Source: a virus (Duplodnaviria > Heunggongvirae > Uroviricota > Caudoviricetes). Taken from it: DNA of 24,757 nucleotides. The notes under the pieces were generated by a model. That model did no database searches and was not told where the DNA came from. It saw only the letters and a program-made list of their open reading frames with translations. The position numbers and the translations under genes were made by a program. Below are positions 3,027 to 19,697 of the stretch, one piece after another. Location: positions 1 through 24,757 of IMG/VR virus record IMGVR_UViG_2648501797_000006; one strand, given 5' to 3'. Within the stretch, counting starts at the first letter, position 1, and every line of letters starts with the position of its first letter.

Positions 3027-3578
3027 ATGCTGCATACTATGAATTTCACGGTGCCCGTAAATCAGTCCACCGTTAACGCTTTAATTAGCAATTGCCTTGG
3101 AGCTATCAATCAGGGGGCGACTGAGTTAAACATTTACATTTCCAGTCCGGGCGGTGACCTCGTTGCAGGTTTTACTGCTTATCACTTTCTAAAGGCCCTA
3201 CCAATCCCAGTAAAGACCCATAACCTTAGCAATGTTGAATCAGTCGCTAATATCATTTTTCTTGCAGGGTCTGAACGTAAGGCGAATCCTGGGAGTCGGT
3301 TCTTACTGCATCCTTTTCACTGGGGCTTGATGGGCCCAAGCGTGGATCACTCACGCGTCAGTGAGTGGAGCGCGTGTCTCAATAATGACCTGGAGCGTTT
3401 TGTCGATATTTTGGAGAGTCAGATTGAGCTCAGTAAGAGCCGCAATGAGTGGAAGGAGGTTATCTCCGCCGCCACCATAGCCAATGCCTCTACAGCTCTG
3501 GATTGGGGGATGGTTCACGAGGTTGCCGCCGCCACTTACCCGCAGGCACCCGGCACATACTGGTGGATTAACTGTTAA
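3027..3578 (+). CDS. ClpP-fold (peptidase S14-like) serine peptidase-like protein, 183 aa
   Basis: AAGGAG at 3015..3020, 6 nt before ATG 3027. ...ELNIYISSPGGDLVAGFTAYHFL...SNVESVANIIFLAGSERKANPGSRFLLHPFHWG parallels ClpP ...YINSPGGVITAGMSIYDTM...GQAASMGAFLL...RVMIHQPLGG, with Ser and His at the corresponding positions. Assignment from recalled motifs only. Confidence 0.55.
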   Translation: MLHTMNFTVPVNQSTVNALISNCLGAINQGATELNIYISSPGGDLVAGFTAYHFLKALPIPVKTHNLSNVESVANIIFLAGSERKANPGSRFLLHPFHWGLMGPSVDHSRVSEWSACLNNDLERFVDILESQIELSKSRNEWKEVISAATIANASTALDWGMVHEVAAATYPQAPGTYWWINC

Positions 3579-3737
3579 CATAATTACCTCTCAAATTTAA
3601 ATTGGGCAGAGATGCCAGCATCCAGGCTCGCGCCTGGACGATTGTCTGATGATGAAAAGTGCAGTTTAATCTGTGGCTGGATTATCTGGATGCACTGGAG
3701 CTGGTTGATACCTCCAGTGCGCCAGATATTGAATGGC

Positions 3738-14956: not shown

Positions 14957-15450
14957 TAAGCCCCCACGTAATTCCCTGACAGATACCATTCATCACCCGA
15001 TACAGCGCGCTTGCTGCTTTTCCGTAAGCACCGCTCTCGACGCGCCAGAAAGTTGTTTCGTTCTGGCTGGGAGTGACTTTCACGGAATGCCGCCATCCAC
15101 ACCGTTGCAGCACGACGGTATAAGCCCCTGGACTCCAGCTCTTCAGCCTGGCGGGTCAGGCACAAAATCACCCGGGGATCGTTAGTGCCGACATAGAAAT
15201 TGCGCACAGGTCTGGTTTCACGAACAGGTTGTGGTTCCGGCTCCTGCGCTCTCTCAGTCAGGCGCGGGAAATGTCTGCGTGTATCTCCTTCACAACGGTG
15301 AGCCACATGCCCACTCTGACGTAACTTGCTTGCTGACTGCAGAACGCGCTGCCGTGAGTAACCTGCAAAAGCATCCGCAATGTCTCCGGAAGTACAGCCC
15401 GGATGGGCTTCAATGAATTTCTGAACGTCATTCAAAAGACTCATGATCAC
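14956..15450 (-). CDS. Putative PerC-like transcriptional regulator
   Basis: C-terminal LESRGLYRRAATVWMAAFRES...RRERCL resembles the PerC/Pch signature as recalled; N-terminal half unassigned. Confidence 0.45.
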   Translation of the reverse strand: MIMSLLNDVQKFIEAHPGCTSGDIADAFAGYSRQRVLQSASKLRQSGHVAHRCEGDTRRHFPRLTERAQEPEPQPVRETRPVRNFYVGTNDPRVILCLTRQAEELESRGLYRRAATVWMAAFRESHSQPERNNFLARRERCLRKSSKRAVSGDEWYLSGNYVGA

Positions 15451-16388
15451 CCCCTGAATCCTGCCGGGATCTGGCTGTAGTCCACGTTGTCGTAACTGGC
15501 TTTGAAGTACGGGTCTTCACGTTTTTCTGTGTGCGTGCTGACGGACGGCGATAAGCGCAGGGAAAGCTCATCCCATTTTTCCCGCAACTTCGACGGGCTG
15601 AGCACGTTACGGCACCAGAACGGATCGCGGCTGACGCGGCTGTACATCTCGCAGATTTGTTTGTGAGTACGACCATCCTGCACACACATCAGGCGAATTT
15701 CGTTTGCCCATGCTGTCCAGTTCGGTTCTTTGGGACGAACCACCTCGCCGTCACATTCGGCGGCCTGCTCGTACAGGGCAATGATTTTTTTCCAGAGCCA
15801 CTGTGCGCAGGTCAAATCATCCTGCGTTCCCCACTGGCGCTTTTTAGGGCTGAATACAACCGCATCAGGATGGCGAGTTAAAAAATCCTGTTCAGCCGTC
15901 TGCGTGTCCGGTTGCGAAGCGTCCGGACGAGAAGGTTTTTTATCTGACGGATCATGTTTTGATTTTACTGACGGATCCCCGCCAGATTCTGACGGGTGAA
16001 AACCCGCTTTTTTGCCAGATTTCGACGCATCAAATTTTGACGTGTCAGATTTTGATGCGTCAGATTTTGACGGGTCAGAATCTGACAGTTGAGAAAATGC
16101 CGCTGCCTGAAGCTTCGCAACGTTAAGCTGATAAACATTCGACGCATTGCGGTTACCCTGGCGACGCGCCTTACGCGTTAACCAGCCTTCTGCTTCCAGC
16201 CGTGCGATAGCCGTTCTGACGGTACTCATCCCCGCGCCAATCTGACGGGCAATAGTTTCAATTGATGGCCAGCACACACCTTCGTCATTACTGAAATCAG
16301 CCAGGCGGGCCATAATTGCCACGCTGGATAATTTCATGCCTGACGCAGCGCAACCATCCCATACATAGCCGGTTAATTTAGTGCTCAT
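15447..16388 (-). CDS. Replication initiator (O-like function) with an N-terminal HTH domain
   Basis: N-terminus ...CWPSIETIARQIGAGMSTVRTAIARLEAEGWLTRK is a winged-helix replication-protein domain; the central low-complexity SDSDPSKSDASKSDTSKFDASKSG is encoded by tandem DNA repeats. Confidence 0.7.
   Translation of the reverse strand: MSTKLTGYVWDGCAASGMKLSSVAIMARLADFSNDEGVCWPSIETIARQIGAGMSTVRTAIARLEAEGWLTRKARRQGNRNASNVYQLNVAKLQAAAFSQLSDSDPSKSDASKSDTSKFDASKSGKKAGFHPSESGGDPSVKSKHDPSDKKPSRPDASQPDTQTAEQDFLTRHPDAVVFSPKKRQWGTQDDLTCAQWLWKKIIALYEQAAECDGEVVRPKEPNWTAWANEIRLMCVQDGRTHKQICEMYSRVSRDPFWCRNVLSPSKLREKWDELSLRLSPSVSTHTEKREDPYFKASYDNVDYSQIPAGFRG
15940..16095. repeat. Tandem iteron-like repeats (about 8 copies, ~15 bp period) inside the replication gene: probable ori
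   Basis: Repeated (C/T)CAGA(T/A)TTTGACG units, for example tcagattttgatgcg, tcagattttgacggg, tcagaatctgacagt, ccagattctgacggg. Boundaries approximate (within a few nt). Confidence 0.6.
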
Positions 16389-17528: not shown

Positions 17529-17625
17529 ACGCCCTCCAAACTAAGTTTTATTAGATGCTAATTACAAATCTATCTTTGGTCAATAAAAACTAAGATTACT
17601 TAGCAATTCAAGAAATGGTGCTCCT
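17529..17625. promoter_or_regulatory. Divergent immunity-region promoter/operator (OR-like)
   Basis: 97-bp gap between cro-like and cI-like genes with two AACTAAG motifs in near-palindromes: ctaagttttattag (17541..17554) and ctaagattacttag (17590..17603). Candidate leftward -35 TTGACC (complement 17579..17584) and -10 TAGCAT (complement 17555..17560). Confidence 0.55.
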
Positions 17626-18252
17626 ATGGAAACGGTTGGTCAGCGTATAAAAGCTCTGAGAAGAGTTACCGGAACGTCCCAGAAAGAATTGGGTAAATTT
17701 TGTGGAGTAAGCGACGTTGCTGTGGGGTACTGGGAGAAAGACATCAATACCCCTGGTGGGGAGGCACTTTCGAAATTAGCGAAGTTCTTCAATACGTCAA
17801 TAGATTACATTCTTTATGGTGCTGAGTTTGAAGGCAAACTCGTCACAAACATGCGCAGAGTTCCTGTAATATCGTGGGTTCAGGCTGGGCAGTTTACTGA
17901 GTGCAGGGCAGCAGAAGTGTTTAGTGAAGTGGACAAGTGGGTAGATACATCATTAAAGATTGGTGATAACTCATTTGCATTAGAGGTTAAAGGTGACTCC
18001 ATGACTAACCCTAATGGCCTCCCAACAATACCAGAAGGCGCAACAGTGATTGTAGATCCAGATGCAGAACCTCGTCATGGAAAAATAGTCATCGCTCGAC
18101 TTGATGGAACAAACGAAGCTACAGTAAAAAAATTAGTCATCGATGGCCCTCAAAAGTTTTTAGTGCCATTAAATCCTCGGTATCCCAACATCCCTATCAA
18201 TGGTAATTGCCTTATCATTGGTGTAGTCAAAGGAGTTCAATACGAACTCTAA
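17626..18252 (+). CDS. cI-like prophage repressor (HTH-XRE plus S24 LexA-like peptidase domain)
   Basis: N-terminal HTH (QKELGKFCGVSDVAVGYWE) and C-terminal autocleavage domain with GDSM serine and a downstream lysine (VKKLVIDG). Confidence 0.85.
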   Translation: METVGQRIKALRRVTGTSQKELGKFCGVSDVAVGYWEKDINTPGGEALSKLAKFFNTSIDYILYGAEFEGKLVTNMRRVPVISWVQAGQFTECRAAEVFSEVDKWVDTSLKIGDNSFALEVKGDSMTNPNGLPTIPEGATVIVDPDAEPRHGKIVIARLDGTNEATVKKLVIDGPQKFLVPLNPRYPNIPINGNCLIIGVVKGVQYEL

Positions 18253-18420
18253 GACCTCTCTTCTCTAACTAAGGCACCGAACTAAGAAAAGTTTGGTGTT
18301 TTCTCTTGCCATAATAACTAAGTTAAGTTAGATTTTATATCAAAGATAACGAACAGGCAGGACGCCCACGAAGTAGCCGCCTGGGGCATATGAAGTCCAG
18401 GATGATTCGTTGAGTCATGT
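18253..18420. promoter_or_regulatory. Candidate second operator cluster (OL-like) downstream of cI
   Basis: Three more AACTAAG copies at 18267..18273, 18280..18286 and 18316..18322 (the last followed by ttaagttag). Confidence 0.35.
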
Positions 18421-18458
18421 TGTGCCACCAGGCACTCATGTTAAAGCAGGTGTATGAA

Positions 18459-18734
18459 ATGAAAGTCCAGATTTTAAACAATAACTGTGAAGTCGTTTGG
18501 TCATACGACATAGCCGCCCCTGTAGATCAGAGCGGCGATAGCTGGACCAATGGGAAACATCAGATTATGGCTGGAGTTGTGTTCTCTTTACGCCGTGCTT
18601 TGGAACAGGCTGAAGTATTTCCATCAGACCCTGAATGGAAATGGCCTTTTTCTATTTGTCCAAATTCGGAGAGCACATTTCAGAAAATTGGTCAGAAAGT
18701 CGCACTCGAAGAGCATCAGCCAACTGTTTCCTGA
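18459..18734 (+). CDS. Hypothetical small protein downstream of cI (rex/sieB-equivalent position)
   Basis: ATG at 18459 (MKVQILNNNCEVVW...) with a weak AGG upstream; its 3' end overlaps a convergent ORF and reads less protein-like there. Confidence 0.3.
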   Translation: MKVQILNNNCEVVWSYDIAAPVDQSGDSWTNGKHQIMAGVVFSLRRALEQAEVFPSDPEWKWPFSICPNSESTFQKIGQKVALEEHQPTVS

Positions 18735-18897
18735 TTTTTTCAGGTAACTCGTCGGCATCGCAGAAACAACAACGCTCGATCATGTTGAAAGCCGATTCGT
18801 AGAACTGTTTCTGCTGAGTGTCGCTGAGACAGGAAAAGAGCGACGTTACGATGATTTTATTAATTGCATTATCAAGTTCTTTTTCATCAAAAGTCAT
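18652..18897 (-). CDS. Hypothetical small protein (81 aa), convergent with and overlapping the previous ORF
   Basis: AAGGAAAA 7 nt before ATG (complement 18895..18897); MTFDEKELDNAINKII...; no family recognised. Confidence 0.4.
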   Translation of the reverse strand: MTFDEKELDNAINKIIVTSLFSCLSDTQQKQFYESAFNMIERCCFCDADELPEKIRKQLADALRVRLSDQFSEMCSPNLDK

Positions 18898-19129
18898 TTG
18901 ATTTTCCTTTTATGTATACGGGCTTAAAAGGATACCACCGAGCCTGAAGTGGTGAAAAGACAGGCACATAACAGCTAAGTATTTTCAACCAGAGAGAATC
19001 CTTAGCGTTGTGGTGAATGCGGCTCAGCGCACGCGGGTTAAGGTTGAGGCTGACAGTCGACCTTCTGTAGATACCCACCCGCCTGGTGTGCAACCTTCGC
19101 CAGGCACCGGGAGGCACCCGGCACCACAA

Positions 19130-19197
19130 CTTTATGCTGTGTGTAGTCCTGGCGGTACCAGTTTGTACCCTTGCTTCCGGCTGGTACCGCTCTTTTT
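19130..19197 (+). ncRNA. Candidate DicF-like small RNA with an intrinsic terminator
   Basis: In a ~440-bp gap with no convincing ORF: perfect 10-bp stem gcggtaccag (19152..19161) / ctggtaccgc (19181..19190), 19-nt loop, then tcttttt. The segment ggcggtaccagtttgtaccc resembles the DicF core as recalled (ggcggtatcagttttactcc). 5' boundary not determinable. Confidence 0.35.
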
Positions 19198-19334
19198 ACA
19201 AAACAGAGAAGAGCATCACCGGACGACGGGCTCATAACCCAATCCATCCGGGCGGCTGCCACCGCAGGTGTTCTTCTCTGTTTTGTGGAGAAACTAATCG
19301 GCCTTGCAGGGTCGATATGATGAGGAGCAGCAAA

Positions 19335-19697
19335 ATGGCTAGCGAACGCAGTACTGATGTGCAGGCATTTATCGGGGAGCTGGACGGCGGCGTATTTGAA
19401 ACCAAAATCGGCGCAGTTCTCAGTGAAGTCGCTTCCGGTGTGATGAACACGAAAACCAAAGGTAAGGTCTCACTCAACCTGGAAATCGAACCATTTGATG
19501 AGAACCGTGTGAAAATCAAACACAAACTCTCATATGTTCGCCCGACTAACCGCGGGAAAATTTCCGAAGAAGACACCACCGAAACGCCGATGTATGTCAA
19601 TCGCGGTGGTCGCCTGACTATTCTGCAGGAAGACCAGGGACAATTACTGACTCTTGCCGGTGAACCTGACGGAAAACTCCGCGCAGCAGGTCATTAA
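19335..19697 (+). CDS. yfdP: YfdP-like protein (120 aa)
   Basis: GAGGAG 7 nt before ATG 19335; the track's upstream extension is GC-rich structured sequence. Assigned by length and position ahead of yfdQ/yfdR-like genes. Confidence 0.5.
   Translation: MASERSTDVQAFIGELDGGVFETKIGAVLSEVASGVMNTKTKGKVSLNLEIEPFDENRVKIKHKLSYVRPTNRGKISEEDTTETPMYVNRGGRLTILQEDQGQLLTLAGEPDGKLRAAGH

Follow-up and report, generated by a model that had tools for sequence, protein, structure and literature searches.

Comparative evidence shows that two short open reading frames (ORFs), which converge and overlap downstream of the repressor gene of an SfV-like lambdoid prophage of E. coli, are both real protein-coding genes under purifying selection and are held in a fixed geometry. 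This conclusion draws on a constant distance of 439 nt between the two start codons, the presence of only two open frames, the ratio of non-synonymous to synonymous change, a switch of codon phase along the pair, and the existence of divergent members of both protein families. The prophage makes up the window, that is, the whole stretch of 24,757 nucleotides that was analysed, in which positions 18253-19340 match E. coli strain 123636 at 100% identity and phage SfV at 99%. An earlier note, made from the sequence alone, had described the two ORFs and held that they could not both be confirmed from sequence; the comparative data now confirm both. Its description of the pair agreed with the ORF list, in which the plus-strand ORF (18459-18734, hereafter the plus gene) and the minus-strand ORF (18897-18652, the minus gene) converge and share 83 bp (18652-18734). 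The contrast it drew between their ribosome-binding sites was also visible in the sequence, with a weak AGGTG 6 nt 5' of the plus ATG at 18459 and a strong Shine-Dalgarno sequence, AAGGAAA (18909-18903), 5 nt 5' of the minus ATG at 18897, the latter conserved across lineages.

Eight lineages were compared at the DNA level (the window, L003, L090, L094, L105, L107, L108 and L109), with pairwise nucleotide identities of 51-78% except for L105 and L109 (92%). The distance from the plus ATG to the minus ATG was exactly 439 nt in 8/8 lineages, without indels and with both ORFs intact, and the overlap geometry was identical in the lineages mapped by tblastn. L003, which has a Rac-like immunity region and is the source contig of the plus homologue P0040, carried both ORFs in convergent orientation, each at ~60% amino acid identity. 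A frame control in four lineages found only the two called frames open, the other frames containing 1-7 stops per lineage, and pN/pS was 0.33 in the called frames versus 0.5-2.2 in the others. Over all 28 pairs, with synonymous sites near saturation in most between-lineage comparisons, mean pN/pS was 0.38 for the plus gene and 0.37 for the minus gene, so that a comparison of synonymous and non-synonymous conservation, as the earlier note had proposed, found both frames constrained. That note had also named stop codons in related prophages as evidence against the frames, and the search for them returned rare frameshifted variants, present only as small clusters (1-14 members), together with a remnant in SfII, and no systematic disruption. 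The SfII sequence, at first sight a 35%-identical homologue of the plus gene, was set aside as a product of recombination that keeps the first 14 codons and then runs into a stop. The viral contig loci (80-82) were all near-identical, at least 99%, and are informative for polymorphism only; neither ORF carried an indel (0/82), and the polymorphisms by codon position (5/6/7 in the plus gene, 2/1/4 in the minus gene) were too sparse to separate the frames.

The phase of the overlap places codon position 3 of the plus gene opposite position 2 of the minus gene, and position 2 of the plus gene opposite position 3 of the minus gene, so the most variable class of sites reveals which frame is constrained. 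Along the first part of the module (module positions 0-216; 18459-18675) the plus-frame signature was observed, with mean pairwise differences of 0.54-0.60 at plus position 3 and 0.21 at plus position 2. The last part (module positions 252-438; 18711-18897) carried the minus-frame signature, with 0.53-0.67 at minus position 3 and 0.15-0.29 at minus position 2. Between them, at module positions 217-251 (18676-18710), all classes were depressed to 0.18-0.30, compared with 0.5-0.67 for the wobble class elsewhere, and these 35 nt form a core under dual constraint, coding on both strands, where the conserved cores of the two proteins overlap.

The plus gene encodes 91 aa and corresponds to WP_021563905 (PGAP), SfV orf33 and PHROG 3195. 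Its frame, open over 18417-18734 in the ORF list, offers three possible ATG starts (18417, 18438 and 18459), and annotations differ in their choice (18459 in PGAP, 18438 in SfV orf33). The comparisons place the true start at 18459 (MKVQIL...), because all divergent homologues begin there and one mosaic junction lies 2 nt upstream, at 18457. Constraint covers residues 1-84 (18459-18710), to about ...VALEE, residues 85-91 being unconstrained; the stop varies among lineages (codon 92, 94, 108, 123 or 127), and this tail shows only the signature of the minus frame. The tail thus just reads on to the next stop, and the exact extent of the ORF overlap (83-161 nt) is not itself under selection. A profile search recovered plus homologues at 43-68% identity, one of them from Salmonella, and a word-indexed search, which returned mainly near-identical E. 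coli sequences and frameshifted variants, yielded one true divergent homologue (P0040, 64% identity). The protein matches PHROG 3195 over its full length (E = 8e-70), a family without assigned function. It is acidic (pI 4.8-4.95) and has no Arg-rich N-terminus, which sets it apart from N-type antiterminators, small and very basic proteins that bind RNA through an arginine-rich motif at the N-terminus; the structure model, of low confidence (pLDDT 58), has a beta-hairpin followed by helices and would make it an alpha/beta protein of ~84 aa.

The minus gene (18652-18897) encodes 81 aa, with its core at residues 1-74 (18897-18676), and its product matches PHROG 3311 over the full length (E = 1e-56), again a family without assigned function; the PHROG matches of both ORFs show only that earlier annotators had called them. 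It is unannotated in PGAP/RefSeq and in the SfV record, and called as an ORF in vB_EcoM-720R4. Exhaustive HMMER searching found homologues at 35-58% identity (P0051, P0053, P0055, P0056 and P0058), and a scan of genome contigs with the minus protein returned no relative. With a pI of 4.6 the protein is acidic; it is also hydrophilic, and a three-helix fold of ~75 aa is predicted by AF2 with modest confidence (pLDDT 71). In a decayed prophage of E. coli FDAARGOS_1276 (L104, 2415-2702), a deletion has fused a fragment of a tail-protein gene to the middle of the cassette; the plus gene is gone there, and PGAP calls the minus-strand ORF as a 95-aa fusion (WP_000141754).

Upstream of the minus gene, the only sequence conserved across nine lineages, solo copies included, is a promoter-like block (18957-18929, minus strand) consisting of TTTCAC (18957-18952), a 17-nt spacer and TGg-TATCCT (18937-18929). 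Its consensus is TTTAAC/TTTCAC, 16/17 nt and (TGn)TAnnCT, located 31-33 nt upstream of the minus ATG; L107 lacks the TG of the extended -10, and a tenth lineage, L100, has a weaker version directly beside the start codon. The block scores 7-8/12 and was missed by the promoter scan, for which the cut-off was 9/12. It lies inside the mobile unit and transfers with the module, and its conservation suggests that it is the minus gene's own promoter. The spacer of this block also contains an inverted repeat, ACCAC-N10-GTGGT, with one compensatory CCGC/GCGG change in L107 and with arm spacing and position relative to the -10 that vary among lineages. A conserved RNA hairpin or terminator was considered for this repeat and rejected, since it folded no better than shuffled sequences (z -0.6 and -1.4 on the two strands) and has no U-run; it could be a protein-binding site.

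The placement of the pair in the immunity region was then read from the flanking signals. The gene order is cro (17528-17328, minus strand), cI (17626-18252, plus strand, with HTH_3 and Peptidase_S24 domains), the convergent pair, an STnc100-like RNA, and yfdP, yfdQ, yfdR ... xis, int, all of the last series on the plus strand. Directly after cI lies an intrinsic terminator (18271-18302, plus strand) whose hairpin (-15.1 kcal/mol; z = -4.0 versus shuffles) runs into UUUUCUC, and the SfV record annotates a rho-independent terminator at the equivalent site. It is followed by a predicted pL-like sigma-70 promoter (18306-18334, plus strand; TTGCCA-17-TAGATT; 9/12 in the promoter scan), and an operator-like palindrome, CTAAG-TTAA-GTTAG (18318-18331), lies between and over its hexamers. 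The palindrome between cro and cI, CTAAG-ATTA-CTTAG (17590-17603, OR), has a form like the CTAAG-N4-GTTAG of OL, and ACTAAG half-sites cluster only around cI, at 17540 and 17589 (OR) and at 18268, 18281 and 18317 (OL). From these signals we infer that 18306-18334 acts as pL. The plus gene would then be the first gene of the pL operon, in the position of lambda N, and the minus gene would lie antisense to pL transcription.

These features revise the location proposed in the earlier note, which had put the ORFs where lambda carries rexAB/sieB. In lambda, rexAB lies between cI and OL/pL and is co-transcribed with cI from pRM. The likeness is that small accessory genes sit beside the repressor in a lambdoid immunity region; here, unlike in lambda, a terminator and a pL-like promoter separate cI from the ORFs, and because the terminator and the promoter/operator precede them, the ORFs lie on the pL side and not in the rexAB slot. 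No match to RexA, RexB or SieB profiles (Pfam/NCBIfam/PADLOC) was obtained at E <= 1 for either protein or its homologues. A further likeness to rexAB is that at least the minus gene is plausibly expressed in the lysogen.

Several further features were observed in this part of the window. Downstream of pL, a conserved leader element (~18345-18410, plus strand; CAGGCAGGACGCCCACGAAGTAGCCGCCTGGGGCATATGAAGTCCAGG) recurs in L003 (~3530-3590), where another first gene follows it, and in L090 (2886-2920), where it lies on the far side of the cassette. No Rfam family matched the element, and its fold was no more stable than that of shuffled sequence (z -0.6); it could conceivably be a nut-like site or some other signal of the leader. 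A 58-aa ORF on the minus strand (18335-18511) runs across the leader of pL and the 5' end of the plus gene and is a CDS in vB_EcoM-720R4; it lies antisense to conserved leader sequence and is probably spurious. On the other side of cro, a replication-initiator-like protein with an HTH (15447-16388, minus strand) contains a low-complexity repeat, SDSDPSKSDASKSDTSKFDASKS, in mid-protein, and the repeat DNA also yields several short ORFs on both strands.

To the right of the pair lies an STnc100/PasD-family sRNA-like element (18977-19199, plus strand; Rfam RF02076, 44.8 bits against a gathering score of 47, E = 7e-8). Its terminator (19151-19197; -21.2 kcal/mol, z = -3.6) is the next plus-strand terminator after the ORF pair, and the element is the right bound of the pL-proximal unit, outside the cassette. 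EHEC transcribes copies of the STnc100 family (PMC5331693), which has also been discussed together with PasD (bioRxiv 10.64898/2026.05.13.724894). A role as an HK022 put-type antiterminator RNA was considered and dropped, the HK022 immunity region containing no STnc100 match. Such elements lie near the module in several lineages and not in all, so no obligatory link is claimed. A PGAP pseudo-CDS, a "frameshifted hypothetical protein" at 19010-19320, overlies the element, as does a 112-aa CDS in SfII, and both are probably a mis-annotated RNA gene.

The pair behaves as a mobile cassette (~18457-18970) that comprises the plus gene, the minus gene and the promoter block of the latter, with mosaic junctions at 18457 on the left and ~18966-18972 on the right. 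Near-identical cassettes, moving as a single block, were found on at least three kinds of left flank (window-like, SfV-like, and one starting at 18457), and in SfII and 689R6 the flanks are shared and other convergent pairs occupy the slot. The GC content of the cassette (0.41-0.46) did not differ from that of cI (0.39-0.47). The cassette was present in ~401/5426 complete E. coli genomes, with a single CDS, the plus gene, annotated under the match; the ~400 bearers include O157:H7 strains, in which RefSeq likewise annotates the plus gene only. At every examined locus with a plus gene, an intact minus gene lay beside it, and the pairwise divergences of the two proteins were correlated (Mantel r 0.83, p ~2e-4). 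The sequence comparisons show the two genes to be inherited together in the convergent-cassette context. The minus family also occurs without the plus gene (L097, L098/L099 and L100), and coupling of the two is therefore not obligatory.

Orientation relative to the phage's transcription was kept wherever it could be read. In five other lineages with readable flanks, the module comes first or second behind the repressor gene in the pL direction, with kilR and gam downstream of it in L105. In L094 the pair has the same geometry upstream of the lysis cassette, with the plus gene co-oriented with the late genes. Across every readable context (at least six different repressors, and L094), the plus gene runs with lytic transcription and the minus gene against it. 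Of the three solo minus homologues, two occupy the interval from Q to the holin gene and oppose late transcription; the contigs with the third (L098/L099) are too short to reveal its surroundings. One of the solo loci, L100 (2265-3738), is a dense accessory/TA island in the Q-to-holin region, where a Sib antitoxin RNA (107 bits), an STnc100 element (71 bits) and hicAB adjoin the minus homologue.

On these grounds, we consider it fairly probable that the cassette is a switch-coupled, excludon-like pair, with the minus gene on in the lysogen and the plus gene on after induction. An excludon consists of convergent or divergent neighbouring genes with overlapping transcripts and mutually exclusive expression. 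As the first gene behind a cI-repressed pL-like promoter, the plus gene would stay off in the lysogen and be expressed early once the prophage is induced or a cell is infected. The minus gene, as a separate transcription unit with a strong ribosome-binding site running head-on into pL, would be the member expressed in the lysogen. Firing of pL would shut off the minus gene by transcriptional interference and duplex RNA, the reverse also being possible, and the outcome would be mutually exclusive expression coupled to the switch. Neither strand of the module yielded an intrinsic terminator, and as the coding regions share 83 nt, the two transcripts would necessarily overlap, provided that both are made. 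Both promoters, the state in which each gene is expressed, the interference and any relationship between the two proteins are what we infer. What the proteins do can only be guessed, given that fold searches were uninformative and the structure models of modest or low confidence; most likely the minus protein is a lysogen-state accessory factor and the plus protein its lytic-phase partner or antagonist. Searches of both proteins against Pfam, NCBIfam, PADLOC, PDB and fold libraries gave no match, and both are hydrophilic (GRAVY -0.2 to -0.6) without membrane segments.

Excludons have been recorded in E. coli K-12, where ExcludonFinder lists ymfI-ymfJ of e14, as a convergent excludon from RNA-seq, and sieB-ydaF of Rac (PMC12288877); ymfJ, which is under CI-like control, is switched on late in the SOS response (PMC11002266). 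In e14 (L103, 5498-6085), ymfJ and ymfI converge with a 63-bp overlap directly downstream of the repressor gene ymfK. Like the plus gene, ymfJ lies just downstream of a CI-like repressor and an early promoter, and its partner faces it; unlike the e14 pair, the cassette has 35 nt constrained in both frames and is a fixed 439-nt unit. YmfJ and YmfI were tested as homologues and showed no sequence homology, and the likeness is architectural only. With e14, SfII and vB_EcoM-689R6 all holding unrelated convergent pairs, a gene that faces pL head-on seems to be a recurrent design.

The same recurrence can be turned against an excludon-like coupling. The two genes might be independent, abutting morons in the post-pL slot, whose overlap is incidental to tight packing and a chance stop, and unrelated convergent pairs in that slot in SfII, 689R6 and e14 fit such a picture. 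Morons of lambdoid phages, a concept of Juhala and Hendrix, are autonomous accessory transcription units inserted between phage genes. The cassette resembles them in being present or absent among relatives, in its sharp junctions and in its exchange among immunity types, as well as in the promoter-like block of the minus gene and the occurrence of the minus family in the Q-holin moron slot; it differs in being a two-gene convergent unit with no recognisable terminator of its own and with a GC content like that of its neighbours. That the minus family occurs alone, and that the plus tail is unconstrained with a variable stop, both favour a looser coupling. Independence leaves unexplained, however, the exact, indel-free 439-nt geometry in eight lineages down to 51% nucleotide identity, the doubly constrained 35-nt core kept in all of them, the correlated divergences of the two proteins, the absence of any plus gene without a minus gene, and the retention of the pair geometry after the move to a late-region context in L094. 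Fixed geometry, core, co-divergence and the plus gene never standing alone favour functional coupling. We judge independence to be unlikely.

Those four facts also leave room for a poison/antidote relationship, in which the plus protein would be a harmful product of the lytic phase, acting in host take-over, and the minus protein, its antisense mRNA, or both would neutralise leaky plus expression in the lysogen. A plus gene never found without the minus gene, alongside a minus gene that is sometimes alone, would fit this relationship, and TA systems (Fic/Phd, HicAB, Sib) abound in the regions that contain the module, which also lies beside kilR. Type I TA systems of B. subtilis prophages, such as bsrG/SR4 and txpA/RatA, have convergent, 3'-overlapping transcripts, and the cassette shares with them this geometry and a prophage location, and nothing further; unlike them, it encodes two conserved soluble proteins of ~75-85 aa, with no small hydrophobic toxin and no dedicated non-coding RNA. 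Nor does it resemble type II systems, as its genes are convergent and form no operon, and neither protein had a toxin or antitoxin family or fold match. Neither is hydrophobic or membrane-like, and frameshifted minus variants in genomes that keep the module argue against strict addiction. A TA-like role is doubtful in our view.

A bolder version of the favoured coupling is that the cassette is a self-contained accessory switch, in which the minus mRNA would double as a 3'-overlapping antisense regulator of the plus gene and the plus product would antagonise the minus protein. The 35-nt core would then be where the partners interact, maintained because selection acts on the two proteins and the RNA duplex alike. 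We hold this version, too, to be improbable. The possibility that only one ORF, either the plus ORF or the minus ORF that the earlier note preferred for its better signals, is a gene and the other a tolerated antisense open frame, which would accord with the PGAP and SfV annotators calling the plus ORF only and with the long antisense ORFs that can arise by chance opposite real genes, is already contradicted by the comparative data and is hardly credible, since each ORF carries its own codon-phase signature and a pN/pS of ~0.37 in the part beyond the overlap, where the facing strand is non-coding or unconstrained, members of the minus family stand alone without a plus gene, and all other frames are closed.

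Collectively, the cassette is an ordinary-sized accessory unit whose type of architecture is known, a pair that is convergent and overlapping and resembles both morons and excludons, and it is noteworthy mainly for the evidence of dual coding and for the annotation gap, its present value being moderate. The comparisons resolve an annotation ambiguity and bring to light a conserved family of 81-aa proteins that RefSeq has systematically missed, and they supply a clear natural instance of protein-coding genes that overlap in antisense, a short segment of which is selected in both frames. Lying directly downstream of pL in opposite orientations, the two genes are a candidate accessory switch between the lysogenic and lytic states, with possible roles such as superinfection exclusion or defence combined with lytic-phase release. 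Should the self-contained switch be true, it would tie an exclusion, defence or host-modulation function to the lysis-lysogeny state and would represent a type of accessory switch not yet described for lambdoid phages.
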